From: an uncultured Chloroflexia bacterium
GTDB taxonomy: Bacteria > Chloroflexota > Limnocylindria > Limnocylindrales > CSP1-4
Assembly: GCA_963768655.1 (NCBI GenBank)
Contig: CAVYIM010000009.1
Span: forward strand, 1 to 64,000
Reading direction: 5' to 3'
Length of the DNA stretch: 64,000 nucleotides
Shown here: one piece after another, positions 16,074 to 57,753 of the stretch
Position numbering within the stretch: the first letter of the stretch is position 1
Layout: each line of letters opens with the position of its first letter
Position numbers and translations under genes: made by a program
The notes under the pieces: model-generated
What the model saw: the letters and a program-made list of their open reading frames with translations, nothing else
What the model was told of the DNA's origin: nothing
The model's database searches: none

Positions 16074-16150
16074 TGGCGGGCTCGACCGGATTCGAACCGG
16101 CGGTCTCCAGCGTGACAGGCTGGCATGTTAGGCCGCTACACCACGAGCCC
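16074..16150 (-). tRNA. tRNA-Asp (GTC)
   Basis: GGGCTCGTGGTGTAGCGG..CTGTCAC..GGTTCGAATCC..GAGCCCGCCA cloverleaf with encoded CCA. Confidence 0.97.
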
Positions 16151-21796: not shown

Positions 21797-21872
21797 GCGC
21801 CTGTAGCTCAGCGGATAGAGCGTCGGCCTCCGGAGCCGAAGGTCGCAGGTTCGAATCCTGTCGGGCGCGCCA
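21797..21872 (+). tRNA. tRNA-Arg (CCG)
   Basis: GCGCCTGTAGCTCAGCGGATAGAGC..CTCCGGA..GGTTCGAATCC..GGGCGCGCCA. Confidence 0.97.
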
Positions 21873-25891: not shown

Positions 25892-25909
25892 CGAGGACCT
25901 GCCTTCGCG

Positions 25910-27398
25910 GAGGATGTCCCGCTCGTCGTGGAATTTCAGTGAGGGTCGGGTCTCCAGGTTGCTGATCATATCGGTTGGTTGGTAGCGCTCGCCTCGCTTT
26001 CGATGTGGAGCTCGCGCTTTAGCGCAGCGGCAAGAATGGGCAGCTCCCGATAGCCGCAGACTCGGCGGAACTGAGCCTCTGCGGCGAGCATCCCAGCGGC
26101 GGCCCAGCGCAGCGCCATCTCGCCCGACTCCCAGTTCTTCACCCGGCGGGCGTGCGTCTTGACGATCTCGATCATCGATTCCATCGGGTTGGTCGACTCG
26201 AGCGTCCTCCAGAGCGAGCCGCTGATGCCCAGACGCGTCAGGGTGAGCGTGTCGTCGAGCCCCTCGCGCAGCGACGCGGCGGCTCCCGGACGGCTGTGGG
26301 CCAGACTGCGGGCCAGGGAGTGGAGGGCCGCCTTCGCCCTGTCCGGATCTCGCTCGGCCCAGGCGGCCCGAAGCCGGCGCTGGGCGAGCGGTCGTTCGAT
26401 CTCGGGCAGGTGCTCTAGAACGTTGCGCTCTTTGTGGCGATGGCAGCGATGGATCGCCACGCCTTTGCCCAAGAAGGTGGGGATGGCCGAACCGATGGCG
26501 GAGCCGCCGTCGACGACGAAGAGGACGCCTGCGCTTGTGTCCAGACCGCGATCGCGCAAGTCCGCCAGGAGCGCGTTGACCACCGCGCTGTTCTCGGTCG
26601 TGCCCTCGACCACGCCGAGGGGCACCTTGTGGCCGGCGGCGTCGATCCCGAGCGCGCCTACGAGCAGGTGATCGCCCAGGCGAAAGCCATCGAGCATGAG
26701 CACGAGGTAGCGGCGGTCGTCGAGTCTGCGCCCGAGCAGCTCAGCCAGGCGCTCTGCCGTGGCGGCGAGGAAGCGGCGGCTGACGGCGGCGTGGCTGGTC
26801 GAGACGGCGGCCTCCTCGATGGCCTCGCCAACAGGCTCGAGGCCAACCGGATAGTCGCGAGTCGAGAGCCCCGCGAGCATCCGGGCGACGATCCCGTCGG
26901 CGAGCAGATCGCTGGCTCTCGCGGCCTCGTAGGTCGCGAGCGGCAGCTCGGCTGCTCCATCGGCACTTCGCACACGTGGCCGCTCGACGCGGAGTCGGCG
27001 GCCGCCCAGGGTCACGGTTCCGGCTTCACTGCCATGGCGATAGGCAACTCGATCCGCTCGGTGGCGGCCGCGTGGGCCGGCCAGGCCGTCAACCTCAGCC
27101 GCCATCAGCTCGTCGAGGACCTCGAGGCCGACCGCGGTCGAAGCGGCCAGCAGGCCCTCGCGCAGATGGCTCGCGAACGTGGCGAGATGGCCCTCGAGCC
27201 GCCCTGTCAGCTCAGCAGGAAGCTGGTGAACGAGACGGCGAGGTCGGCGGCATCGCTTCTCAGGGCGGGGCCGGACGTGGGACGATGGCATGGGTTCCTC
27301 CAGTTCGACTTTCCGGGTCTCCCGTAGCGTGACAGCTCACGCTCCGGGCTGGAGGACCCACCCCTCAACTCAAATTCCACGGAACTCGGGACAACCTC
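25910..27398 (-). mobile_element. IS256-family insertion sequence, copy 1 (1489 bp)
   Basis: Imperfect TIRs GAGG(T/A)TGTCCCG..CGTGGAATTT.AGT; 9-bp target duplication GCCTTCGCG at 25901-25909 and 27399-27407. Confidence 0.95.
25966..27291 (-). CDS. IS256-family (mutator) DDE transposase
   Basis: [20 protein letters not shown] (CxxH), STNPMES. Confidence 0.93.
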
Positions 27399-31577: not shown

Positions 31578-33066
31578 GAGGTTGTCCCGAGTTCCGTGGA
31601 ATTTGAGTTGAGGGGAGGGTCCTCCAGCCCGGAGCGTGAGCTGTCACGCTACGGGAGACCCGGAAAGTCGAACTGGAGGAACCCATGCCATCGTCCCACG
31701 TCCGGCCCCGCCCTGAGAAGCGATGCCGCCGACCTCGCCGTCTCGTTCACCAGCTTCCTGCTGAGCTGACAGGGCGGCTCGAGGGCCATCTCGCCACGTT
31801 CGCGAGCCACCTGCGCGAGGGCCTGCTGGCCGCTTCGACCGCGGTCGGCCTCGAGGTCCTCGACGAGCTGATGGCGGCTGAGGTTGACGGCCTGGCCGGC
31901 CCACGCGGCCGCCACCGAGCGGATCGAGTTGCCTATCGCCATGGCAGTGAAGCCGGAACCGTGACCCTGGGCGGCCGCCGACTCCGCGTCGAGCGGCCAC
32001 GTGTGCGAAGTGCCGATGGAGCAGCCGAGCTGCCGCTCGCGACCTACGAGGCCGCGAGAGCCAGCGATCTGCTCGCCGACGGGATCGTCGCCCGGATGCT
32101 CGCGGGGCTCTCGACTCGCGACTATCCGGTTGGCCTCGAGCCTGTTGGCGAGGCCATCGAGGAGGCCGCCGTCTCGACCAGCCACGCCGCCGTCAGCCGC
32201 CGCTTCCTCGCCGCCACGGCAGAGCGCCTGGCTGAGCTGCTCGGGCGCAGACTCGACGACCGCCGCTACCTCGTGCTCATGCTCGATGGCTTTCGCCTGG
32301 GCGATCACCTGCTCGTAGGCGCGCTCGGGATCGACGCCGCCGGCCACAAGGTGCCCCTCGGCGTGGTCGAGGGCACGACCGAGAACAGCGCGGTGGTCAA
32401 CGCGCTCCTGGCGGACTTGCGCGATCGCGGTCTGGACACAAGCGCAGGCGTCCTCTTCGTCGTCGACGGCGGCTCCGCCATCGGTTCGGCCATCCGCACC
32501 TTCTTGGGCAAAGGCGTGGCGATCCATCGCTGCCATCGCCACAAAGAGCGCAACGTTCTAGAGCACCTGCCCGAGATCGAACGACCGCTCGCCCAGCGCC
32601 GGCTTCGGGCCGCCTGGGCCGAGCGAGATCCGGACAGGGCGAAGGCGGCCCTCCACTCCCTGGCCCGCAGTCTGGCCCACAGCCGTCCGGGAGCCGCCGC
32701 GTCGCTGCGCGAGGGGCTCGACGACACGCTCACCCTGACGCGTCTGGGCATCAGCGGCTCGCTCTGGAGGACGCTCGAGTCGACCAACCCGATGGAATTG
32801 ATGATCGAGATCGTCAAGACGCACGCCCGCCGGGTGAAGAACTGGGAGTCGGGCGAGATGGCGCTGCGCTGGGCCGCCGCTGGGATGCTCGCCGCAGAGG
32901 CTCAGTTCCGCCGAGTCTGTGGCTATCGGGAGCTGCCCATTCTTGCCGCTGCGCTGAAGCGCGAGCTCCACATCGAAAGCGAGGCGAGCGCTACCAACCA
33001 ACCGATATGATCAGCAACCTGGAGACCCGACCCTCACTGAAATTCCACGACGAGCGGGACATCCTC
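31578..33066 (+). mobile_element. IS256-family insertion sequence, copy 2 (1489 bp)
   Basis: Near-identical to copy 1, inverted; 8-bp target duplication TGCTACGT at 31570-31577 and 33067-33074. Confidence 0.95.
31685..33010 (+). CDS. IS256-family transposase
   Basis: 441 aa; differs from copy 1 at two visible residues (P/R, S/L); GGAGG RBS. Confidence 0.93.
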   Translation: MPSSHVRPRPEKRCRRPRRLVHQLPAELTGRLEGHLATFASHLREGLLAASTAVGLEVLDELMAAEVDGLAGPRGRHRADRVAYRHGSEAGTVTLGGRRLRVERPRVRSADGAAELPLATYEAARASDLLADGIVARMLAGLSTRDYPVGLEPVGEAIEEAAVSTSHAAVSRRFLAATAERLAELLGRRLDDRRYLVLMLDGFRLGDHLLVGALGIDAAGHKVPLGVVEGTTENSAVVNALLADLRDRGLDTSAGVLFVVDGGSAIGSAIRTFLGKGVAIHRCHRHKERNVLEHLPEIERPLAQRRLRAAWAERDPDRAKAALHSLARSLAHSRPGAAASLREGLDDTLTLTRLGISGSLWRTLESTNPMELMIEIVKTHARRVKNWESGEMALRWAAAGMLAAEAQFRRVCGYRELPILAAALKRELHIESEASATNQPI

Positions 33067-33445
33067 TGCTACGTGGTCGGGGATGCAGTCTGGGACCTGC
33101 TCGCGGCCCGCCGCGCCGGGATGTTGAGCGTCGGTCTGCTGAGTGGCGGCTACGGCCAGGACGAGCTGATCCAGGCCGGGGCATTCCGCGTCTATCGGGA
33201 CCCGCAGGACCTGTTCGAGTCGCTCGACGAGCTGGGGGTCACGCTGCCCGGTTGAGGCAGACGAGCGCGGCTGATTCACTCGAACCTCGGAGCGGTTCTT
33301 CGATGTACCGCCGGTAGCCTGTTCGCGGCTGGCGACGGTGGGGGGTCGCCGATCGTGCCCATCCGTGCCGCGATCGTCTGGCGTGCCGACGCCATCGCTC
33401 GATCATAGGGCGCCACGATCGTACGCCCGCCGGTAGAGTAGGGCG

Positions 33446-40837: not shown

Positions 40838-41008
40838 GCCGGCGGCGGGGCGGCCCTGGAACAATATGGTGGGGCGCTCCGGACACCGTCTGTGCCGAGC
40901 GTCCGAAGCCGGCGCAAGACCATTGGCCGGGCGGGGCTCGGCGGGCGCCAGGGACGCCGGTGCGGCGAGACGTCGTACCCTAGCGGCAACCGCAGGAGGT
41001 CCCTGAAG

Positions 41009-42028
41009 ATGACGCAGAAACCGGCCCTGGACAGCTCGCCCTACGTGGCCCCGGCCGCGAGATACGAGGCCATGCTCTATCGACGGTCCGGCCGGAGCGG
41101 GCTCAAGCTGCCCGTTCTCTCGCTCGGCTTCTGGCACAACTTCGGGGACGGGGCGCCGCTCAGCACGCAGCGGGCCATCGTCCGTCGCGCGTTCGATCTC
41201 GGCATCAGTCACTTCGACCTGGCCAACAACTACGGCCCGCCCTACGGCTCGGCCGAGGAGAACGCCGGGCGCATTCTCCGCTCCGACTTCGGGCGGTACC
41301 GGGACGAGCTGGTCATCTCGACCAAGGCCGGCTGGGACATGTGGCCGGGGCCGTACGGCGACCTGGGCTCGCGCAAGTACCTGCTGGCCAGCCTCGACCA
41401 GAGCCTGCGGCGGCTCGGGCTCGAATACGTCGACATCTTCTACTCGCACCGCCTCGACCCGGACTCGCCGCTCGAGGAGACGCTCGGCGCGCTCGATACG
41501 GCCGTGCGTCAGGGCAAGGCGCTGTACGCCGGCATTTCCTCGTACCCGCCGGCCGAGACGCGCCGGGCGGCGGCGATCCTCCGCGACCTGGGCACGCCGC
41601 TGCTCATCCACCAGCCGTCTTACTCGATGCTGAACCGCCGGATCGAGGACGGCTTGCTCGACGTCCTCGGCGAAGAACAGGTCGGCTGCATCCCGTTCTC
41701 GCCCCTGGCCCAGGGCCAGCTCACCAAGCGCTACCTCGACGGTGTCCCGGCCGGGTCGCGGGCGACGCACTCGCCGTTCCTCCATGTCGAGGAGATCGAG
41801 AAGAACCTGCCGCGCATTCGCGCCCTGAACGCGATCGCGGGGCGCCGCGGCCAGAGCCTGGCCCAGATGGCCCTGGCCTGGGTGCTGCGCGATCCGCGGG
41901 TGACCTCCGCGATCATCGGCGCCAGCTCGGTCGACCAGCTGGAGGACAACGTCCGGGCGCTCGAGAAGCTCGACTTCGCGCCGGAGGAGCTGGCCGAGAT
42001 CGACCGCTGCCTGGCCGGGGGCAAGTAG
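41009..42028 (+). CDS. Aldo/keto reductase, L-glyceraldehyde-3-phosphate reductase (YghZ/MgrA-like)
   Basis: SLGFWHNFG, FDLANNYGPPYGSAE, ISTKAG, YVDIFYSHR; AGGAGG RBS. Confidence 0.93.
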   Translation: MTQKPALDSSPYVAPAARYEAMLYRRSGRSGLKLPVLSLGFWHNFGDGAPLSTQRAIVRRAFDLGISHFDLANNYGPPYGSAEENAGRILRSDFGRYRDELVISTKAGWDMWPGPYGDLGSRKYLLASLDQSLRRLGLEYVDIFYSHRLDPDSPLEETLGALDTAVRQGKALYAGISSYPPAETRRAAAILRDLGTPLLIHQPSYSMLNRRIEDGLLDVLGEEQVGCIPFSPLAQGQLTKRYLDGVPAGSRATHSPFLHVEEIEKNLPRIRALNAIAGRRGQSLAQMALAWVLRDPRVTSAIIGASSVDQLEDNVRALEKLDFAPEELAEIDRCLAGGK

Positions 42029-49552: not shown

Positions 49553-50083
49553 TCAGGCGGTCCGGCGAAGTCGAGGCAGGATGTCCGCGACGATCTCCGG
49601 CGGGGGTCGGTGCGCGGCGAGTGCGGCGCCGGGCTCGTCGGGTTCGAGCGGCTCGAGCGTCTCGAGCTGGCTGGCCAGGAGCGCGGGGGGCATGTAGTGC
49701 CCCTGCCGGTGCTCCAGGCGATCGGCGATGACGTCCGGCCCGACGACAAGGTGAGCGAACCAGACCGAGGCGTGGCCGCGCCGCAGCAGGTCGCGGTAGG
49801 CGCGCCGCAGTGCCGAGCAAGTGACCAGCGCGTTCTCCCCGGCTCGCTCGCGCTCGCCGATCCACGCCGCGAGGGACTCCAGCCAGGGCCAGCGGTCCTC
49901 GTCGGTGAGCGGCGTGCCCGAGCGCATCTTCGCCACGTTGGCGAGCGAGTGGAAATCGTCCGCTTCCGCGGCCGGCCAGCCGAGCTCGTCGGCGAGCGCT
50001 CGCATGACGGTCGACTTGCCGCAGCCGGACACGCCCATGACGACGATCGTCGTGGTCGGCGAGGGCTGACCCGGGTCAGTCAT
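49553..50083 (-). CDS. gntK: Gluconokinase (GntK/IdnK type)
   Basis: MGVSGCGKST, ADDFH, KMRSGTPLTDEDRWPWL, CSALRRAYR, LLASQLETLE; overlaps larC stop. Confidence 0.93.
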   Translation of the reverse strand: MTDPGQPSPTTTIVVMGVSGCGKSTVMRALADELGWPAAEADDFHSLANVAKMRSGTPLTDEDRWPWLESLAAWIGERERAGENALVTCSALRRAYRDLLRRGHASVWFAHLVVGPDVIADRLEHRQGHYMPPALLASQLETLEPLEPDEPGAALAAHRPPPEIVADILPRLRRTA

Positions 50084-51293
50084 CGCGGCCACGAGCCAGC
50101 GCCGCGGCGCGCTCCAGGACGGTGCGGACCGGCAGCCCCAGTCGCTCGGCCGCGGCCGCCGCGTCGGCGTATTCCGCCTGCACCGTCACCGGCCGGCCGT
50201 CGAGCAGGCCGCGCTTGACGCGAACCGCGCAGCCATCCACCGAGACGACGACTTCGTCGCGGGGCAGCGCCCGGCGAGTGACCGGCCGAACCCGAACGCC
50301 GAGCGTGGTCGATTGAGTGAACAGCACCCGAGCGGCGGCGTCGACGACCTCCTCGCCGACCAGCGCCGTCACGACGTGCCCGGGCCGGCCCTTGCGCATG
50401 ACGACCGGCGTCAGCCAGGCGTCGACGGCCCCCGCGGCAACGAGTGCGTCGAGCACCGCCGGCCAGAGTCGCGGATCGAGGTCGTCGACGGTCGCCGCCA
50501 GCTCGAGCAGGTCGTCATTGCGCCACGGAACGCCGGCCGGCGCCAGGGCGGTGCCGAGCACGACCCTCAGGACGTTGGCACGCTCAGGCGGATCCGCGGA
50601 GCCGGCGCCGACGCCGGTGGAGTCGATGCGCATCGGCGCCAGCGCGCCCCACTCTTTGGCGAGGGTCGCGAGAAGCGCCGCCCCGGTGGGCGTGCACAGC
50701 TCCCCGTCGCCGCCCGCGACTACGGGCACGCCTCGCCCGGCGAGGATCGCCAGGACCGCCGGCACCGGGATTGGCAGCAGGCCGTGCGCCGTCTCCACGC
50801 TGCCGGAGCCCAGCGCGAGGGAGCCGACAACCACGCGCGCGTTCGGCTCGAGCAAGCCAAGTGAGTCCAGCGCCGCGGCGCAGCCGACAACGTCGGCCAG
50901 CGAGTCGAGCGCGCCGACTTCGTGCAGGTGGACCTGCGCCAGGTCCTCGCCGTGGACGGCGGCCTCCGCGGTGCCGAGCACTCGGAACACGTCCGTGGCA
51001 AAGGCGCCCACGGCCGGCGCAAGCTTGGCCGCGGCGGCGAGAGCCAGCACGTCGCCGACCGTGCGCCGCGCCGCCGTGTCGTGGACCACCACCTCCGCCT
51101 TCGTCGCCCTCAGCCCGTGGCGACGGACCTGCCGGGGTCGGATCTCGATCGGCTCGACGCCCAGCGCCGCGATAGCCGCAGCCACCGCCTCGAGGGGCGC
51201 TCCGGCGTCGAGCAGCGCGCCCAGCAGCATGTCGCCCGACGCGCCGGCCGAGGCATCGATCCACGCGCAACGTCCGGCTTGTGCCACTGGCAT
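50076..51293 (-). CDS. larC: Nickel pincer cofactor nickel-insertion protein LarC
   Basis: GASGDMLLGAL, EAAVHG, VHLHEVGALDS, HGLLPIPVPA, ELCTPTGAA, MRKGRPG, TTLGVR, EYAD. Confidence 0.93.
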   Translation of the reverse strand: MPVAQAGRCAWIDASAGASGDMLLGALLDAGAPLEAVAAAIAALGVEPIEIRPRQVRRHGLRATKAEVVVHDTAARRTVGDVLALAAAAKLAPAVGAFATDVFRVLGTAEAAVHGEDLAQVHLHEVGALDSLADVVGCAAALDSLGLLEPNARVVVGSLALGSGSVETAHGLLPIPVPAVLAILAGRGVPVVAGGDGELCTPTGAALLATLAKEWGALAPMRIDSTGVGAGSADPPERANVLRVVLGTALAPAGVPWRNDDLLELAATVDDLDPRLWPAVLDALVAAGAVDAWLTPVVMRKGRPGHVVTALVGEEVVDAAARVLFTQSTTLGVRVRPVTRRALPRDEVVVSVDGCAVRVKRGLLDGRPVTVQAEYADAAAAAERLGLPVRTVLERAAALARGRDD

Positions 51294-51391
51294 CTCCTCG
51301 CGGATAGGGCAACACTATGGGCGACAGCCAGTCGAGTCTGACACAAGCTCGCCTATCCGGGCCAGCGCGCCGGAGAAATGGAAGGACCGCA

Positions 51392-52144
51392 GTGATCCGA
51401 ACCCTCGTCGCCCCCGAGCGAGAAGGCGACCTCATCGGACTCGCGCTGGCAGACCTCGTGGCGGGTGGATCGTTCGAGTCTCCCGGCCAGCTCGACACGG
51501 CAGTCGTCGTGCTGAGCGGCGTCGTCGACGTCGAGGCAGCCGGCGAGAAGCTGGGGTCGGCGGGCGGGCGATCGTCCGTCTTCGAGGGCCCGGGCCACAC
51601 CATCTACGCGCCGCCCGGCGCGACCCTGCGGCTCGTGGCCACGCGACCGGCTCAACTTGCCATCGCCACGGCTCCCGGCGGCGCGGGAGCCCCGTCGAAG
51701 GCACGCATCATCGGGCCGGGCGACCAGCGGATCGGCGAGGCCGGCAAAGGCAACTGGCGCCGCGACATCCGCACGATCCTCGGCCCCGAGCACGCCGCCA
51801 GCCGGCTTCTCCTCGGCGAGACGATCAACCCGCCCGGCAACTGGTCGTCGTATCCGCCGCACAAGCACGACCGCCAGGCGCCGCCCGAGGAGGTCCGGCT
51901 GCAGGAGGCTTACTTCTACAAGGTCGACCCGGCCGGCGGCTTCGGTGTCCAGATCCGGTACGACGACGCCGGCGCGGAAACGTTCATCGTTCGCGACGGC
52001 GACGTGGTCGCGATCCCGAGCGGATACCACCCGGTGATCGCCGCGCCCGGTTACTCGCTCTACTACCTGTGGGTCATGGCCGGCGACGGGCGCCAGATGG
52101 CCCCCTATTTCGACCCGGCCCACGCCTGGGTCCAGGAGTCATGA
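51392..52144 (+). CDS. iolB: IolB/KduI-family uronate isomerase
   Basis: GGRSSVF, GNWSSYPPHKHD, EAYFY, GYHPV, YYLWVMAG. Confidence 0.85.
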   Translation: MIRTLVAPEREGDLIGLALADLVAGGSFESPGQLDTAVVVLSGVVDVEAAGEKLGSAGGRSSVFEGPGHTIYAPPGATLRLVATRPAQLAIATAPGGAGAPSKARIIGPGDQRIGEAGKGNWRRDIRTILGPEHAASRLLLGETINPPGNWSSYPPHKHDRQAPPEEVRLQEAYFYKVDPAGGFGVQIRYDDAGAETFIVRDGDVVAIPSGYHPVIAAPGYSLYYLWVMAGDGRQMAPYFDPAHAWVQES

Positions 52145-52971
52145 CGATGGCGCGAGACAATGCGGGCAACGCGGGCAACGCGGGCACTTCGGGCGCAGCC
52201 GGTGTGGCCCTCTTCGATCTGACCGGCAAGGTGGCCGCGGTCATCGGTGGAGCCGGGGTCCTGGGCAGCTCCGTCTGCCACGGCTTCGGCCGGGCGGGCG
52301 CCACGGTTGCTGTGATGGACCGTTCGCGCGAGCGGGCGGACGAGCGGGTGGCCGCGCTCGAGGCCGAAGGCACCCGCGCCGCCGCCCTGGTGCTGGATGC
52401 CTCCGATCGGGCCTCCGTCGAGCGGGCCCGCGTGGATGTGGAGAAGCTTCTCGGGCCAGTCGACATCCTCGTAAACGCGGTCGGCATCAACAGCTCGACT
52501 CCGTTCTTCGAGCTGGGTCTGGACGAGTGGCACCGCGTTCTCGACACGAACCTGACGTCGGCCTTCATCGCCTGCCAGGTCTTCGGTCGGGCGATGGTCG
52601 ACCGCGGTCGGGGCGGGACGATCATCAACTTCTCCTCCACTTCCTCGGAGGTCCCGCTGTCCCGCGTCCTCACCTACTCCGTCTCGAAGGCGGGGATCAA
52701 CATCCTCACCCGCTATCTCGCCCGCGAGCTGGCGCCCCATCGGATCCGCGTCAACGCCATCGTGCCGGGGTTCTTCCCGGCCGAGCAGAACCGCAAGCTG
52801 CTCGACGAGGCCCGCACCGAGGCGATCCTCCGCCACACGCCGGCCGGCCGGCTGGGCGAGGCCGACGAGCTGGTCGGGACGATGATCTGGCTCGCCTCGG
52901 AGCGCGCCTCGGGCTTCGTGACCGGAGCCCTCGTTCGCGTCGACGGCGGCTTCAGCGCGATGACGATCTGA
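52141..52971 (+). CDS. SDR oxidoreductase resembling D-mannonate oxidoreductase (fructuronate reductase)
   Basis: GGAGVLG, PLSRVLTYSVSK (YxxxK), PGFFPAEQNR, HTPAGRLG, ASGFVTG; ATGA overlap with iolB. Confidence 0.85.
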   Translation: MTMARDNAGNAGNAGTSGAAGVALFDLTGKVAAVIGGAGVLGSSVCHGFGRAGATVAVMDRSRERADERVAALEAEGTRAAALVLDASDRASVERARVDVEKLLGPVDILVNAVGINSSTPFFELGLDEWHRVLDTNLTSAFIACQVFGRAMVDRGRGGTIINFSSTSSEVPLSRVLTYSVSKAGINILTRYLARELAPHRIRVNAIVPGFFPAEQNRKLLDEARTEAILRHTPAGRLGEADELVGTMIWLASERASGFVTGALVRVDGGFSAMTI

Positions 52972-53415
52972 GGCCGCGGCAGTCCGGTGCCAGGTCGTCA
53001 ACAGCTCGAATTCGTCAAGCCCGGAGAGGAAAGCCGCCGGCGTCCGGATCGGGAACTCGCCGGCCAGAGCGAGCAGGTGTCCGTCGCCGGAAACCAGGAC
53101 GGCGCGCTGGTCGGCCGCAAGAGAGAGCAGGTAGTCGTCACCCGGATCAACCGAGCGCACTGGCGGAGAGGCGTCGGGGTCCCTGGAGAGAAAGGCCGAA
53201 CGAGACAGCCAGGCCATGAACGCTTCGGCGTCGCTCGTGGGTATCAGGCGCTGAAGCTTCGGATACGCGAGCGCCCGGCCCAGCTCGGCGAGCAATGCGG
53301 GCGACACGATCAGCTCGAACCGACCCTGCTGCCAGGCCAGCAGCAGTCGGGCCGGGGCGCCCGTCCGCGACAGCAGAGCTGAGATCAGGACGTTGGCGTC
53401 GAGGACTGCGCGCAA
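52972..53415 (-). CDS. Second PIN-domain toxin; no stop at the expected position, so the frame stays open to 52105 antisense to the SDR
   Basis: AVLDANVLISALL, LLAEL, DPGDDYLL, LVSGDGHLL; the lower coordinate is approximate. Confidence 0.8.
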
Positions 53416-53416
53416 C

Positions 53417-53647
53417 CTACGGCCGCGGGCTGCGAGTCTCGTGCTGAGCCTCAACGCCCAGCGCCAGGGCGACATCCGCCGGCAGGTCATTGGTCGCCCA
53501 GAGTCGATCGAGCAGATCCAGTCCCAGGTCGCGCCTGAGCGCCTCTTCGATGACCTCGCTGTCGCCCTTGCCGCTGCGGGCCGCGCGGACCTTTACCGCG
53601 CGCAGGACTTCGTCATCGACGGTCAGGGTAGTTCGGACTTTGGCCAT
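53417..53647 (-). CDS. Second ribbon-helix-helix antitoxin
   Basis: KVRTTLTVDDEVLRAVKVRAA..SEVIEEALR; paralog of 44838-45086. Confidence 0.85.
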   Translation of the reverse strand: MAKVRTTLTVDDEVLRAVKVRAARSGKGDSEVIEEALRRDLGLDLLDRLWATNDLPADVALALGVEAQHETRSPRP

Positions 53648-53701
53648 ATCCGCATCATAGCATCAGCGCATCTCGATGATCACCGGGCCGTCGGATCGGC
53701 G

Positions 53702-54511
53702 TTAGGGCCGACCGCGGGCGATGAGCGCGCCGATCGTGCCGGCACCGACTCCATCATCGATGCCGACGACCGCGACACCCGGCGCGCAGGACGAGAGCAT
53801 CGCCAGCAGCGCGCTCAGCCCGCCGAACGAGGCGCCGTAGCCGACGCTCGTCGGGCAGGCAATGACGGGCACTCGCGCCAGGCCGCCGACGACACTCGCC
53901 AGCGCGGCGTCCATGCCGGCGATGACGACGATCGCGTCGGCCCGCTCGATCTCCGGCTGCTCGCCGAGCAAGCGGTGGAGTCCGGCGACGCCCACGTCGC
54001 CGATCACGCGGACGCCGGCCCCGAGCAGCGAGGCGACGGTCTCGGCCTCCTCGGCGACGGGCAGGTCCGAGGTCCCGGCGGTGAGAATGAGCAGCCGGCC
54101 TCGAGCCGCCGGGACGGCGCGGGGGATCGCCACCAGGCCGGCTCGCTCGCGCCAGATCGTCTCGAGGCCGCGGGCTTCGGCGAGGGACCGGACCGCGTCG
54201 GCGTCATCTGCGGCGACGCGGGTCACGACGACGCTCGACTCGTCGTGCTCCAGTTGCGCCTCGACAATCGCCAGCAGCTGCTCGCGAGTCTTGCCCGGGG
54301 CGTAGACGAATTCCACGATGCCCTGGCGCAGGTTGCGGTGATGATCGACGCGGGCGAAGCCGAGGTCGCTGAAGGGCAGCCGGCGCAGCGACTCGAGCGC
54401 GGTCTCGGTCGGAACGCTGCCGTCGGCGACGCCGCGCAGCAGCTCCTCCAGGGCGGCGGAGTAGGAGGCTCCCAGCGCCGGTCTCCCTGCCGGCCCGTCG
54501 CCCTCAGGCAT
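53702..54511 (-). CDS. larB: Nickel pincer cofactor carboxylase/hydrolase LarB
   Basis: FARVDHHR, AGTSDLPVAEEA, DVGVAGLHR, PTSVGYGA, SSCAPG. Confidence 0.95.
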   Translation of the reverse strand: MPEGDGPAGRPALGASYSAALEELLRGVADGSVPTETALESLRRLPFSDLGFARVDHHRNLRQGIVEFVYAPGKTREQLLAIVEAQLEHDESSVVVTRVAADDADAVRSLAEARGLETIWRERAGLVAIPRAVPAARGRLLILTAGTSDLPVAEEAETVASLLGAGVRVIGDVGVAGLHRLLGEQPEIERADAIVVIAGMDAALASVVGGLARVPVIACPTSVGYGASFGGLSALLAMLSSCAPGVAVVGIDDGVGAGTIGALIARGRP

Positions 54512-55367
54512 TGGAGCTGTCTCCTGCGCCGGTTCCGGCATACGCATCCGAAGACCAGCTCTCGAACCCGAGATCGGCCAGGCGCGTCCGGATCTCGGCC
54601 GCCCGAAGATCCAGCCCGGCCAGATCCTCCGCCTCGACCTCCACGCGGGCATGGCTACCGAAGTCTCGAACGCGAACCTGGCGGAAGCCCATCGCCCGAA
54701 GCGCCAGCTCGGCCGCCTCGACGCGCCGCAGCCGGTCCGCCGTGATCATCTCGCCGAACGGGACCCGGCTCGCCAGGCACGCCGACGCCGGCCGGTTCCA
54801 ACCCTCGATGCCGATCGATCGGGCCAGCAGGCGAAGCTGCTCTTTGGTGATGCCCGCCTCGGCGAGGGGCGAGCGGACGCCCAGCTCGGCGCCGGCCGCC
54901 ATGCCGGGCCGGTCGAGCCGTTGCGTGTCCGAGGCGTTCGTCCCGTCGACGACCCAGGCGTAGCCCTCGGCCTTCGCGATCGCCGCGGCGGCGCCGTACA
55001 GCTCGAGCTTGCAGAAGTAGCAGCGGGAACGCGGGTTGCGGGCGTAGCGGGGGTCGTCCAGTTCCTTCGTCGGGATCGTCCGCCATCCGGTCCCGTATCG
55101 GGCCGCCTCTCCGGCGGCGGCCGCGGCGTCGGTCCGATCCCAGGCCGGCACGGCGGCCGATTCGGCGGTCAGCGCCAGGCAGCGCTCGCCAAGCAGCGGC
55201 GAGGCGACCGCGAGCAGGAAGCTCGAGTCGATCCCGCCGGAGAGCGCCAGCACGCAGGAGCCGAGTCCCTCGACGATCTCCAGCAGGCGGCCGAACCGCG
55301 CCAGGACGACCGGGTCGGCGGCGGCCGGCCCGGATTGCGCGCGCTCCAGCAGGTCGTGGTATGGCAT
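54504..55367 (-). CDS. larE: ATP-dependent sulfur transferase LarE
   Basis: PP-loop SGGIDS, RCYFCK, DGTNASD, RPG, SACLASRVPFG, QVRVR. Confidence 0.95.
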   Translation of the reverse strand: MPYHDLLERAQSGPAAADPVVLARFGRLLEIVEGLGSCVLALSGGIDSSFLLAVASPLLGERCLALTAESAAVPAWDRTDAAAAAGEAARYGTGWRTIPTKELDDPRYARNPRSRCYFCKLELYGAAAAIAKAEGYAWVVDGTNASDTQRLDRPGMAAGAELGVRSPLAEAGITKEQLRLLARSIGIEGWNRPASACLASRVPFGEMITADRLRRVEAAELALRAMGFRQVRVRDFGSHARVEVEAEDLAGLDLRAAEIRTRLADLGFESWSSDAYAGTGAGDSSNA

Positions 55368-55450
55368 CGGCGTGACGATACATCCCATCCGCCGGAGCCG
55401 CCCCGCCCGCCCGCGAGAGGCCCGATACCGGCACGTGTAGAGTTGTGCCG

Positions 55451-56839
55451 ATGCAACACGACAAGACGCCCCATCGCGCGCTCGAGCCCGAGGCGCTTGC
55501 CGATCCGCCCGTCCCGACCGCCCCTGCCGCGGCCGGCGGACCCGCACCGTCGCGCGCTTCCAGCCAGGAGCCGTTCGCGGAGTTCATGCGCGTCAATCTG
55601 CCTCGCTGGGCCCTGGTCCGGCACCACATGGACCCCACTGAAGTGACCGACATCGCCGCGACCGTCGCGGCCGCCCTCGATCCGCAACGCGAGGCGATCC
55701 GGCCCGGCTCGCGAGTCTGCCTGGCCGTCGGCAGCCGAGGCATCGATCGGATCGACCAGGTCGTTCGCGCCGCGGTGGCCTGGGTCCGCGCCGCCGGCGC
55801 CGAGGTCTTCGTCGTGCCGGCGATGGGCAGCCACGGCGGCGCCACGCCCGAGGGCCAGCTGGAGGTGCTCGCCTCCTACGGAATGACGCCCGAGTCGATC
55901 GGCTGCGAGATCCGCTCGAGCATGGAGACGGTCGAGCTGGGCGAGGTCCGGCCCGGCGTCCCGGTCTTCGTCGACCGCCTCGCCCTTGAAGGCGCCGACG
56001 CGATCGTCCCGATCAACCGTGTCAAGCCGCACACGGACTTCACCGGCGAGATCGAGAGCGGCCTGATGAAGATGATCGCGATCGGGCTGGGCAAGCAGAA
56101 GGGCGCCGACACCTTCCATCGCCAGGGCTTCGCCATCTTCCACGAGCTCATCCCGGCGGTCGCCGAGTTCACCCTCTCGAAGGTGAACATACCGTTCGGG
56201 CTGGCCCTGGTCGAGAACGGGTATGCCAGGCTGTGGCGGATCGAGGCGGTGCGACGCGACCGGATCTGGGATCGCGAGCGAGAGCTGCTGGTGATGGCCC
56301 GCGAGCGGATGGCCCGCCTGCCGCTGGACACCATCGACGTCCTGGTGCTCGACTTCATCGGCAAGGACATCAGCGGGCTGGGCATGGATTCCAACGTCGT
56401 CGGGCGCTACTACGCCGGGCCGACGGGCGCGGGTCCGAGCATCCAGCGGATCGTCGTCCGCGACCTGACCGGCGAGACCGAGGGCAATGCCGTCGGCATC
56501 GGCATGGCCGACGTGGTGCTGCGGCGCGCGGTCGAGAAGATGGACGCCCACAAGACGTACATGAACTGCATCACGGCCAAGACGCCCGAAGGGGCGCGGG
56601 TCGCGCTGACCGTGGACACGGACCGGGAGGCGCTCTCGATTGCCATTGCCAGCGCCATCGAGGTCGAGCCGCCCGAGGCGCGGATCGTCCGCATCCGTGA
56701 CACCAAGCACCTCGAGCTGCTCTACGTCAGCGAGCCGGCGCTCGCGGACGTGCTGGCAACCGGGCGCTGCGAGATCGTGGCGCCGCTCGAGGCGATCGAC
56801 TTCGGGGCCGACGGAATGTTCGCCGCGGCGGTGGATTAG
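55451..56839 (+). CDS. LarA homolog (lactate racemase superfamily, probable NPN-dependent hydroxyacid epimerase)
   Basis: GSRGI, PAMGSHGG, KPHTDF, SGLMKM..ADTFH (Lys and His 16 residues apart, as for the LarA cofactor ligands); adjacent to larE and larB. Confidence 0.82.
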   Translation: MQHDKTPHRALEPEALADPPVPTAPAAAGGPAPSRASSQEPFAEFMRVNLPRWALVRHHMDPTEVTDIAATVAAALDPQREAIRPGSRVCLAVGSRGIDRIDQVVRAAVAWVRAAGAEVFVVPAMGSHGGATPEGQLEVLASYGMTPESIGCEIRSSMETVELGEVRPGVPVFVDRLALEGADAIVPINRVKPHTDFTGEIESGLMKMIAIGLGKQKGADTFHRQGFAIFHELIPAVAEFTLSKVNIPFGLALVENGYARLWRIEAVRRDRIWDRERELLVMARERMARLPLDTIDVLVLDFIGKDISGLGMDSNVVGRYYAGPTGAGPSIQRIVVRDLTGETEGNAVGIGMADVVLRRAVEKMDAHKTYMNCITAKTPEGARVALTVDTDREALSIAIASAIEVEPPEARIVRIRDTKHLELLYVSEPALADVLATGRCEIVAPLEAIDFGADGMFAAAVD

Positions 56840-56909: not shown

Positions 56910-57479
56910 TCAGCCAGCCCGCCGGTACTCGCCGCCGGCCCGGGTCATCAGGCCCGAGACAACCATGTAGCGCCGCAGAGCGGCCACGTCCTCGTGGTAC
57001 CGGCCGAGGCGCTCGTTTACCTCGCGCTCGGAGTACGGCCGGTCGTCGGCGAAGCAGTGCGCCGCGAGATAGCGCAGCACCGCCTGCCGCTTGCGCTCCT
57101 GGGCCGGTAGCGACACCAGCCGCCCGTCGCGAATGAAGGCGCGGAGCACCTTGGCGTCGTAGGCCGGCAACGACTCGCCGTCCGGGCCCGCCAGCTCGGC
57201 GCCGGCTTCGTCCGCCCGTTCGAGACCCGCCAGCTGCTTCGAGACCGCCGCCAGCCGATCGACACGAAGGGCGTACTCCACGTACGGGCGGCGAGGCGTC
57301 GCCTCGACGAGGCCAGCTGCCTCGAGGCGCTGGAGGTGGTGGACGACGGTCCCGGCCGAAAGCCCGCTCGCCGCCGCCAGCTCTTCGACCGCCATCGGAC
57401 GCCCGGCTAACAGCCCGACCAGCCGCAGACGCGAAGCATCGGCCAGGGCGCGGAGAGCTTCCAGTAGTTGCGGATCCAT
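56910..57479 (-). CDS. ArsR-type HTH fused to DUF2087
   Basis: ALADASRLRLVGLL..HHLQRLEAAGLV; LVSLPAQERKR..YSEREVN..DVAALRRYMV. Confidence 0.85.
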   Translation of the reverse strand: MDPQLLEALRALADASRLRLVGLLAGRPMAVEELAAASGLSAGTVVHHLQRLEAAGLVEATPRRPYVEYALRVDRLAAVSKQLAGLERADEAGAELAGPDGESLPAYDAKVLRAFIRDGRLVSLPAQERKRQAVLRYLAAHCFADDRPYSEREVNERLGRYHEDVAALRRYMVVSGLMTRAGGEYRRAG

Positions 57480-57753
57480 GGCGTCAGGATAGCCACGATT
57501 TGATACATGCCAAATCGTCACCCCGGACAAGCTCGGCGATTCAGGCCCGCCCGGCGGCCTGCGTCGGCGGCCTGCGTCGTCGGCCGCCGGATCCACCTCG
57601 GCGTGCCGCGTTTGCGCGCGAATGCCTCACGCGAGGTGCGCCGCTCTTCTATCGTTCCGGAGAGTCCGCGATACGGCCATCCTGGGTCATGGCTGGTCCA
57701 TGGCCAAAAGGTTGGATAGCCGATCAGGTTCGCGGAGGACTAGGGTGCGCCGC

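Follow-up and report, generated by a model that had tools for sequence, protein, structure and literature searches.

The question raised by this locus is which sugar acid is served by a gene cluster that combines the genes for nickel-pincer nucleotide (NPN), a cofactor, with an isomerase-like cupin, a reductase, a LarA homolog and a gluconate kinase. The cluster lies in a 64,000-nucleotide stretch (the window) of contig CAVYIM010000009.1, assembly GCA_963768655.1, from an uncultured Chloroflexia bacterium, a soil-type member of the Chloroflexota. Its gene order is gntK-larC (minus strand), an iolB-like cupin gene and a short-chain dehydrogenase/reductase (SDR) gene (plus), a PIN/ribbon-helix-helix (RHH) pair (minus), larB-larE (minus), and a LarA homolog of group 22, here LarAH22 (plus). 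Our analysis suggests that the cluster is probably a self-contained route from a hexuronate, most likely D-glucuronate, to the pentose phosphate pathway, supplied with its own NPN cofactor genes. The data establish the gene identities, the LarA fold with its kept cofactor and catalytic residues, the conserved pair SDR-LarAH22, and the alternation, at equivalent cluster positions, of UxaC with the cupin and of FGGY with P-loop kinases; all substrates, and the order in which SDR, epimerase and kinase act, are inferred.

According to this proposal, the cupin would isomerize glucuronate to fructuronate, which is the job of UxaC, and the translationally coupled SDR would reduce fructuronate to D-mannonate. 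LarAH22, loaded with NPN made by LarB, LarE and LarC, would then invert C2 and convert D-mannonate to D-gluconate through a LarA-type hydride shuttle that uses two retained catalytic histidines. The P-loop GntK would phosphorylate gluconate to 6-phosphogluconate, and a short-type Gnd encoded elsewhere in the genome would decarboxylate it. The assembly (3.37 Mb, 9 contigs, 88.6% complete) carries one IlvD/Edd-family gene and one short-type Gnd, and no match to UxaC, UxuA, UxaE or 2-keto-3-deoxy-6-phosphogluconate (KDPG) aldolase (Eda) was found in the whole genome. With Gnd present and no KDPG aldolase match, 6-phosphogluconate would most simply enter the pentose phosphate pathway.

The evidence that carries this reading is gene context in relatives. 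The conserved core is the pair SDR-LarAH22, as SDR orthologs 65-91% identical share a cluster with LarAH22 in 14 of 16 related loci and are directly adjacent to it in most. Upstream of this core UxaC and the cupin alternate, with UxaE optional; the kinase, which lies beside the core or downstream, is either of the FGGY type or a P-loop GntK, sometimes with Gnd. LarAH22 at least 61% identical was found in 17 genomes of the class sample, 10 of which have no cupin paralog. Three of these cupin-less genomes (G194, G291 and G182) have UxaC-FGGY kinase-SDR-LarAH22 on one strand, and one (G017) has UxaC-SDR-LarAH22; four others have SDR-LarAH22, two of them with larB, larC and larE, and the remaining loci have LarAH22 alone in one case and a Gnd-like gene 1.6 kb upstream in the other. 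Where UxaC and a gluconokinase-like FGGY kinase precede SDR-LarAH22, LarAH22 is 72-75% identical to that of the window, and UxaC passes the glucuronate isomerase equivalog (431 bits, cutoff 387). The direct placement of UxaC and an FGGY kinase before the orthologous SDR-LarAH22 pair in these relatives is one of the grounds on which the chain from glucuronate to 6-phosphogluconate, already proposed in the preliminary description of this DNA, is the reading best supported by gene context, even though the wide synteny tied to it failed (see below).

Genus-mates bring further support. All six of their cupin orthologs lie in lar clusters (L116-L121), two of which have the same gene order as the window. 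One genus-mate (G020) has LarAH22 and LarE, then SDR-cupin, then GntK-Gnd; in three others (G146, G122 and G014) a LacI regulator and an ABC transporter stand ahead of the cupin, UxaE and the SDR, which are followed by LarB, LarE and LarAH22. The presence of UxaE between cupin and SDR in three of the six clusters (E 1e-121 to 1e-123) supports a hexuronate chain, and the Gnd that follows GntK in G020 (415 bits on TIGR00872, cutoff 297) supports the link to 6-phosphogluconate. In a sample of 41 genomes of the genus, which are relatives rather than independent observations and for which we give no statistic, 22 have the cupin paralog, 13 have UxaC and 31 have a LarAH22 ortholog of full length. 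Every cupin genome also has LarAH22 (22/22), within about 6 kb on one contig in 18, whereas the nine genomes without LarAH22 include none with the cupin paralog and two with UxaC. The 31 LarAH22 genomes divide into 19 with the cupin only, 8 with UxaC only, 3 with both and 1 with neither. That the cupin occurs only with LarAH22, and mostly where UxaC is absent, supports the cupin as a substitute for UxaC.

Two side observations belong to these genus-mates. An MR_MLE (enolase-superfamily) gene lies beside larC in the UxaE clusters of G146 and G122 (L119-L120); its best match, a weak one, is to glucarate dehydratase (177 bits against 829), which suggests that it may add a branch for acid-sugar dehydration to this locus. 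One genome, G320, was left out of the genus counts since it has only LarAH22 and cupin fragments; its degraded cluster (G320:C5:143002-149486) holds a cupin that is 52% identical and has two TGA codons in frame, while of LarAH22 no more than a C-terminal piece is present.

The preliminary description took the LarA homolog to be GntE-like; it belongs instead to NCBIfam group 22 and not to the GntE groups 19/20. Its match to NF052515 ("NPN-dependent isomerase, group 22") spans profile positions 1-389 of 392, its only other match to an NCBIfam LarA-family model is to malate racemase (22.5 bits, cutoff 500), and none of its NCBIfam matches is annotated as GntE. A single-sequence phmmer search of the PDB reached E 0.021 at best, to 4NAR, and a profile search of the PDB returned only TAL-effector repeat matches, which we take to be an artefact of composition or of repeats; by sequence, the resemblance to LarA proteins of solved structure is thus negligible. 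The AlphaFold model, for which 52 family sequences were used (predicted local distance difference test score, pLDDT, 92.3; predicted template modeling score, pTM, 0.87) has the two-domain fold of LarA, as predicted structures go: the 14 top matches listed by Foldseek against the PDB are all of the LarA family (E 3.3e-12 to 6.6e-8, template modeling score about 0.45-0.53) and include Sar (9EIA), Mar2 (7S91), LarA (5HUQ) and GntE2 (4NAR). Across the 52 sequences H130, H196, K209 and H225 are invariant and R98 is nearly so. By motif (GSRG, PAMGSHG, KPHT, ESGLxKM) and by the group-22 rows of Dataset S2 (PMC7583248), H130/H196 correspond to the catalytic H108/H174 of LarA, and K209/H225/R98 to the NPN-binding K184/H200/R75. 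The family has basic residues of its own, with K307 invariant and R192, K194 and R321 nearly invariant. Group 22 is large, with 1117 clusters at 50% identity at E < 1e-30 and at least 7977 clusters at 90% identity. A protein search found one LarAH22 copy in the own genome; a PF09861 (Lar_N) search of that genome found nothing, the LarAH22 of the window included, and is therefore uninformative on other LarA homologs.

In the available part of Desguin 2020 (PMC7583248), the group-22 proteins have a sugar-acid-like context (Table S1): SDR in 45%, COG0129 dehydratase in 30%, LarE in 30%, tripartite ATP-independent periplasmic (TRAP) transporter in 30%, FGGY-type kinase in 25% and UxaC in 20%. A full-text search, together with the text of PMC11770544 and PMC12611868, figures excepted, gave no published function for the group, and the text of the Journal of Biological Chemistry 2024 supplement gave no match for group-22 organisms.

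The SDR is proposed, by its profile matches, to be a fructuronate reductase of the D-mannonate oxidoreductase type. NF006132, the model of that enzyme, was the top model for every SDR tested, 59-72 bits above gluconate 5-dehydrogenase, and the orthologs of L009, L010 and L130 score 263.7-272 while that of L079 reaches 289.5, above the cutoff of 281. In L116, L117 and L118 an ortholog of the window GntK (76-88% identity) adjoins larC or the cupin, and GntK is within the cluster in the window and in three of six genus-mates; the window protein falls below both E. coli equivalog cutoffs (117.6 against 265 and 108.4 against 304). The FGGY kinases beside LarAH22 score 339-478 bits against a gluconokinase equivalog cutoff of 648.55, suggesting that they may not be plain gluconokinases. 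Linkage of LarAH22 to both a fructuronate-reductase-type SDR and a gluconate kinase was found in the window, L116-L118, L128-L130, L079, L008 and L014.

For the cupin we propose the role of UxaC, that is, a uronate (aldose-ketose) isomerase, judging from family membership and position. Its ligands H182, H184, E197 and H238 are invariant in 13 of 13 copies, and E. coli KduI, of the same Pfam family, is described in the available text of PMC3578941 as facilitating glucuronate and galacturonate conversion, which sets a precedent for the isomerase step. The E. coli-type KduI equivalog NF002091 gave only 22.7 bits against 250. On TIGR04378, the IolB equivalog, copies from inositol clusters score 300.2 and 313.9 and a copy in KduI context scores 222.2; as this last copy also passes the cutoff of 205, the IolB model seems to over-call. 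The window cupin is 41-42% identical to the inositol-cluster copies L124, L125 and L127, and the lar-linked cupin is 37-42% identical to inositol-type and KduI-context copies of the same class. In a tree of 29 copies, the seven lar-linked cupins form one clade (99/99) on a long stem. This clade joins the three copies in KduI context (98/93), and the 19 rows of inositol type stand separately; the tree has a long-branch warning and an arbitrary root, and two rows of the inositol type belong to unpublished genomes. Of 301 class genomes, the window genome included, 163 give an IolB match (E 1e-10 or better), a tally that contains nine genomes flagged unpublished, and a copy at least 68% identical is present in only seven of the 301, all of the window's genus. 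None of the other cupin matches in the class exceeds 49% identity, and both kinds occur together in two genomes. These low-identity copies are of two types, one in inositol clusters with IolE-like, IolG-like, aldehyde dehydrogenase and PfkB genes, and one with ABC transporter, GH88, FAA hydrolase, cupin, SDR and PfkB genes, a KduI-KduD-KdgK-like arrangement. To this latter type belong the second family cupins that genus-mates carry in L122 (G020:C3, 6960-12865), L123 and L126, where the order is ABC transporter-GH88-FAA hydrolase-cupin-SDR-PfkB. The window cupin may in fact begin at the GTG at 51392, which has the ribosome-binding site GGAAGGA in front of it, since in L117 the first 25 codons show no conservation at the protein level.

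A scan of one genome per GTDB species gave at least 600 LarAH22 matches, and the best 80 loci were analyzed with two tblastn panels, the first of window proteins (maximum E 1e-10, minimum coverage 0.6) and the second wider (maximum E 1e-8, minimum coverage 0.5). The whole gene set was found in one locus, L006, at 91% identity. The wider panel found LarC in 9 of the 80, LarE in 8, LarB in 7, an FGGY kinase in 4, Gnd in 3 and UxaC in 1. Taking all loci together, larB, larC and larE lie beside LarAH22 in L006, L038, L039, L047, L053, L074, L079, L116-L121, L132 and L133. Three of the 80 loci have related contexts. L008 (69% identity) has, in this order, an ABC transporter, an FGGY kinase, an IlvD/Edd-family dehydratase, LarAH22 and Gnd, where the kinase has gluconokinase as its best model (438 bits, below 648) and Gnd passes TIGR00872 (373 against 297). 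L079, from Neobacillus, reads LarAH22-SDR-LarE-FGGY kinase-LarB-LarC, with 478 bits for the kinase on the gluconokinase model. L014 reads UxaC, FGGY kinase, SDR, LarAH22, an order that rests on tblastn, as the genes are frameshifted and were missed by a crude open reading frame (ORF) filter based on third-position G+C.

Several points weigh against the proposed route or limit it. Co-occurrence of iolB, SDR, gntK and LarAH across lineages, which was expected from the preliminary description, did not hold: only one of the 80 species-level loci has it, and tblastn found neither IolB nor P-loop GntK in the other 79. An SDR of any kind is within the locus in only 15 of the 80. Since distant group-22 loci have few of these partners, most distant members probably serve other contexts. 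L009 and L010 (67% identity) have SDR-LarAH22 and then an EamA transporter, with divergent cupin_2, DegT-type aminotransferase and SIS-domain genes, a context that does not fit a hexuronate route. Among the genomes searched, recruitment of the cupin is confined to one genus, whose members are not independent of each other; UxaC and the cupin occur together in 3 of the 31 LarAH22 genomes; and the three UxaE clusters have no kinase within the stretch examined. Family scans found no transporter in or beside the cluster of the window, and the incompleteness of the genome makes the absences reported above provisional. At the protein level, the window SDR falls below the NF006132 cutoff (Table 1), its second-best model being gluconate 5-dehydrogenase (201 bits), and the cupin barely passes the IolB equivalog. 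The equivalents of LarA D72 and K298 are missing from LarAH22, with V95 and V319 in their places by motif. Residues T197-D198 follow H196, where GntE has glutamate and then valine or serine. According to the parts of Desguin 2020 available (PMC7583248), this E-V/S pair after the second catalytic histidine belongs to a GntE signature that also includes W in helix 11 and A/V (and H) in helix 14; in Dataset S2, the rows for group 22 have A/V at D72, I/T/V/L at the K298 position, T-D or T-A after the second histidine, and V/G/A/S then L/I at W358/T359; groups without such residues might catalyze other hydride-mediated reactions; and group 22, with 20 proteins, is listed there as "Unknown function".

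The alternative ranked first places the kinase first in the route. The GntK-like enzyme would then phosphorylate D-mannonate, and LarAH22 would be a 6-phosphomannonate/6-phosphogluconate 2-epimerase. Both activities were reported in extracts of Lactobacillus suebicus, with the genes unassigned, as part of a hybrid isomerase-phosphoketolase pathway with a kinase for mannonate plus a 6-phosphomannonate 2-epimerase (PMC6978723, available text); this was the only paper on a 6-phosphomannonate epimerase that we found in full-text literature, and neither LarA nor nickel occurs in the portion of it available. Like that pathway, the proposed route joins an upper isomerase pathway to 6-phosphogluconate by C2 epimerization, with the steps in a different order. 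The low gluconokinase scores of the FGGY kinases beside LarAH22, the conserved basic residues peculiar to group 22, and its lack of the GntE signature, would also agree with a phosphorylated substrate. On the other hand, the window kinase passes the GntK/IdnK-type subfamily cutoff, and E. coli GntK is reported not to use mannonate (cited in PMC6978723, as far as available). The SDR, not the kinase, is the most conserved neighbor of LarAH22; SDR-LarAH22 occurs without a kinase in the stretch examined in 5 of the 10 loci L128-L137, and none of the 20 group-22 proteins in the accessible Desguin 2020 dataset comes from Lactobacillus. We consider the kinase-first order unlikely. The same low standing is given to its widest form, in which group-22 LarA would be the orphan 6-phosphomannonate/6-phosphogluconate 2-epimerase and the adjoining kinases mannonate kinases, this would be the first case of NPN acting on a phosphorylated sugar acid, and the cupin would represent a third class of hexuronate isomerase, unrelated to the others, that arose from a KduI-like ancestor within one Chloroflexota genus.

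Ranked after it, and also doubtful, is an order with the epimerase before the reductase, in which LarAH22 would turn fructuronate into 5-dehydro-D-gluconate and the SDR would be a 5-ketogluconate reductase giving D-gluconate. The chemistry would be allowed, as fructuronate (5-dehydro-D-mannonate) is itself a 2-hydroxy acid, and the SDR misses the mannonate oxidoreductase cutoff with gluconate 5-dehydrogenase as its second model. The pairing of an SDR with an IdnK-type kinase also recalls the idonate branch of E. coli. However, the mannonate oxidoreductase model scores about 64 bits above the 5-ketogluconate model for the window SDR and for every ortholog tested, the ortholog in L079 passes its cutoff, and the activity measured in Thermotoga is on mannonate/gluconate (PMC7583248, available part).

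The least probable alternative is that the cupin is a true IolB or KduI, with 5-deoxy-glucuronate or 5-keto-4-deoxyuronate as its substrate, in a deoxy sugar acid cluster, or that the lar cluster only happens to adjoin the sugar genes and its LarAH22 has some other, unrelated 2-hydroxy acid as substrate: the passed IolB equivalog, the KduI-context copies as nearest clade, the lack of these partners in most distant group-22 loci and the mixed group-22 contexts that include COG0129 dehydratases and TRAP transporters (Desguin 2020, available part) speak for it, and are set against a cupin that always occurs with LarAH22, at the position UxaC has in relatives, with UxaE between cupin and SDR pointing to hexuronates, against the low identity to inositol-cluster copies and their much higher scores, against the lack of a GH88 gene in the window, of a PfkB kinase in or beside the cluster, and of Eda or an IolD-level match in the genome (best 212 bits, cutoff 715), and against the consideration that an enzyme of the LarA type would not be expected to take 2-deoxy or 2-keto products. 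No iol genes for the IolB pathway lie in the window, and IolE and IolG were not searched genome-wide.

The route from glucuronate through fructuronate, mannonate and gluconate has to be compared with known systems. The galacturonate branch of Thermotoga maritima was reportedly proposed by Rodionova et al. in 2012. Its operon, gnd-uxaR-uxaE-uxaD-gntE-gntK, leads from galacturonate to the pentose-phosphate branch (PMC3750489, available text), and Thermotoga GntE2 (LarAH group 20, PDB 4NAR) was assayed and interconverts mannonate and gluconate (PMC7583248, available part). Like Thermotoga, the window has an SDR reductase, an NPN-dependent LarA homolog and a gluconate kinase in one cluster, with UxaE and Gnd in relatives, and the product would be 6-phosphogluconate with mannonate dehydratase bypassed. 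Unlike Thermotoga, the window has a putative epimerase of group 22 and not of groups 19/20, with different specificity residues, a KduI/IolB cupin rather than UxaC as putative isomerase, and larB, larC and larE within the cluster itself. The view that this gene set is not a described unit was thus half right, as the segment fructuronate-mannonate-gluconate-6-phosphogluconate has been published for T. maritima. LarAH22 resembles group-22 proteins such as Rubrobacter xylanophilus Rxyl_2987 and Bacillus coagulans Bcoa_1745 in its R, H, H, K and H residues, in T-D, in a non-acidic residue at D72 and a non-lysine at K298, and in the sugar-acid-like published context; the function of the group is unassigned in print, whereas the context in the window suggests a specific substrate. 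As in KduI-KduD, a cupin of PF04962 precedes an SDR, and its metal ligands are conserved as they are in IolB; unlike KduI-KduD or IolB, the lar-linked cupin forms a separate clade and occurs with UxaE, LarAH22 and GntK, not with GH88 and KdgK or iol genes. The type of pathway is known, and what is new is an uncharacterized LarA subgroup in the proposed role of GntE, a cupin proposed to stand in for UxaC, and embedded cofactor genes.

The features of the locus are collected in Table 1. The region has 70-75% G+C, so that long spurious ORFs are common, and candidate frames were assigned by family scans. The gntK start is a GTG at 50092 or an ATG at 50083, which overlaps the larC stop by 17 or 8 nt, and the cupin stop and SDR start share ATGA; the larC-gluconokinase overlap and the divergent IolB/KduI gene coupled to an SDR, both described earlier, are confirmed by these junctions and by the PF04962 match. 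The divergent LarA homolog with its retained His/Lys/His residues also stands, and scans of the remaining window agree that there are no other iol genes, uxaC or uxuA. Part of the earlier layout had to be corrected. The genes larB and larE are present after the SDR, but in the opposite direction: being on the minus strand, they converge with the SDR and diverge from the LarA homolog. In addition, a PIN/RHH pair between SDR and larB had been missed. LarB, LarC and LarE all score above NCBIfam cutoffs within the LarAH22 cluster, LarC on the LarC1 and LarC2 models (TIGR00299, 179 bits, and NF052512, 116 bits). The larE translation shows the PP-loop SGGIDSS, and the true starts of larB and larE are probably internal, near 54547 and 55367-55388, respectively.

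Table 1. Features of the lar-linked cluster and its adjoining genes, with window coordinates
Feature	Position	Strand	Match
gntK-like, P-loop gluconokinase (GntK/IdnK type)	49553-50092	-	TIGR01313 169.9 bits, cutoff 113.75
larC, nickel-inserting cyclometallase for NPN, LarC1+LarC2 fused	50076-51293	-	PF01969 E 4.1e-117
IolB/KduI-family cupin, lar-linked paralog	51317-52144	+	PF04962 E 6.3e-73; TIGR04378 208.2 bits, cutoff 205
SDR	52141-52971	+	PF13561, PF00106; best model NF006132 264.9 bits, cutoff 281
PIN-domain toxin (VapC-like)	about 53000-53412	-	PF13470 E 5e-15; TIGR00305 47.4 bits, cutoff 29.15
RHH antitoxin, 76-aa ORF upstream of PIN gene	53417-53647	-	PF01402 E 1.7e-7
larB, nicotinic acid adenine dinucleotide (NaAD) carboxylase/hydrolase for NPN synthesis	53702-54652	-	NF033503 237.8 bits, cutoff 175, residues 102-313; PF00731
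larE, sacrificial sulfur transferase for NPN synthesis	54504-55547	-	TIGR00268 246.3 bits, cutoff 150, residues 87-334
LarA homolog, group 22 (LarAH22)	55445-56839	+	NF052515 499.7 bits, cutoff 400
ArsR-type helix-turn-helix protein with DUF2087 domain	56910-57596	-	PF09860, PF01022

The PIN/RHH pair is a recent unrelated insertion outside the pathway. It forms about 0.7 kb (52990-53700) between the convergent ends of SDR and larB, with the RHH gene followed directly by the PIN gene 4 nt away; the PIN gene is absent from all six orthologous genus-mate clusters L116-L121 (0/6), and the RHH antitoxin has no tblastn match in them. The cluster is flanked by a UvrD-type helicase gene, an unassigned ORF and the ArsR-DUF2087 gene. 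The ArsR-DUF2087 protein is 89-93% identical and adjoins LarAH22 in L116, L117 and L006, and this place beside LarAH22, kept in the two closest relatives, makes it a candidate regulator. No riboswitch was found near the lar genes, the only Rfam hits above threshold being two tRNAs, and promoter and terminator scans gave counts near shuffled expectation.

The rest of the window gave no further sugar-acid gene. An aldo-keto reductase (AKR) gene at 40838-42028, about 8 kb from larC, was considered as an NphT-like NPN client and rejected. NPN-dependent AKRs (NphT) were described in 2026 with AKR14A1 as the non-binding control (PMC13524815), and the window protein is of the YghZ/AKR14A1 type (NF007388, 459 against 448), an L-glyceraldehyde-3-phosphate reductase type that is probably not a client of the nickel cofactor by family assignment. 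Two inverted copies of 1492 nt (25907-27398 and 31578-33069), 100% identical and each with a Mutator-family transposase gene (PF00872), flank 4179 nt with a LytR_cpsA_psr gene and a HAD hydrolase gene, an arrangement that resembles either a composite transposon or a segment capable of inversion. The tRNA genes are at 16077-16150 (minus) and 21797-21869 (plus). From 21.9 to 25.7 kb no ORF has the third-position G+C bias usual for this genome, and this part may mark foreign or non-coding DNA next to the insertion sequence copies.

In conclusion, the contexts described here give group 22 of the LarA family candidate substrates, D-mannonate/D-gluconate or their 6-phosphate or 5-keto forms, and name partner enzymes. 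If the proposed route is true, UxaC has been replaced by a cupin of the KduI/IolB family, which matters for annotation because both this cupin and a KduI-context copy pass the IolB equivalog outside inositol clusters. NPN-dependent C2 epimerization of hexonates would then have arisen at least twice within the superfamily. A redox-neutral route from hexuronates to ribulose-5-phosphate, of interest for the conversion of pectin and glucuronan (PMC6978723, available text), would extend to abundant soil and freshwater Chloroflexota.

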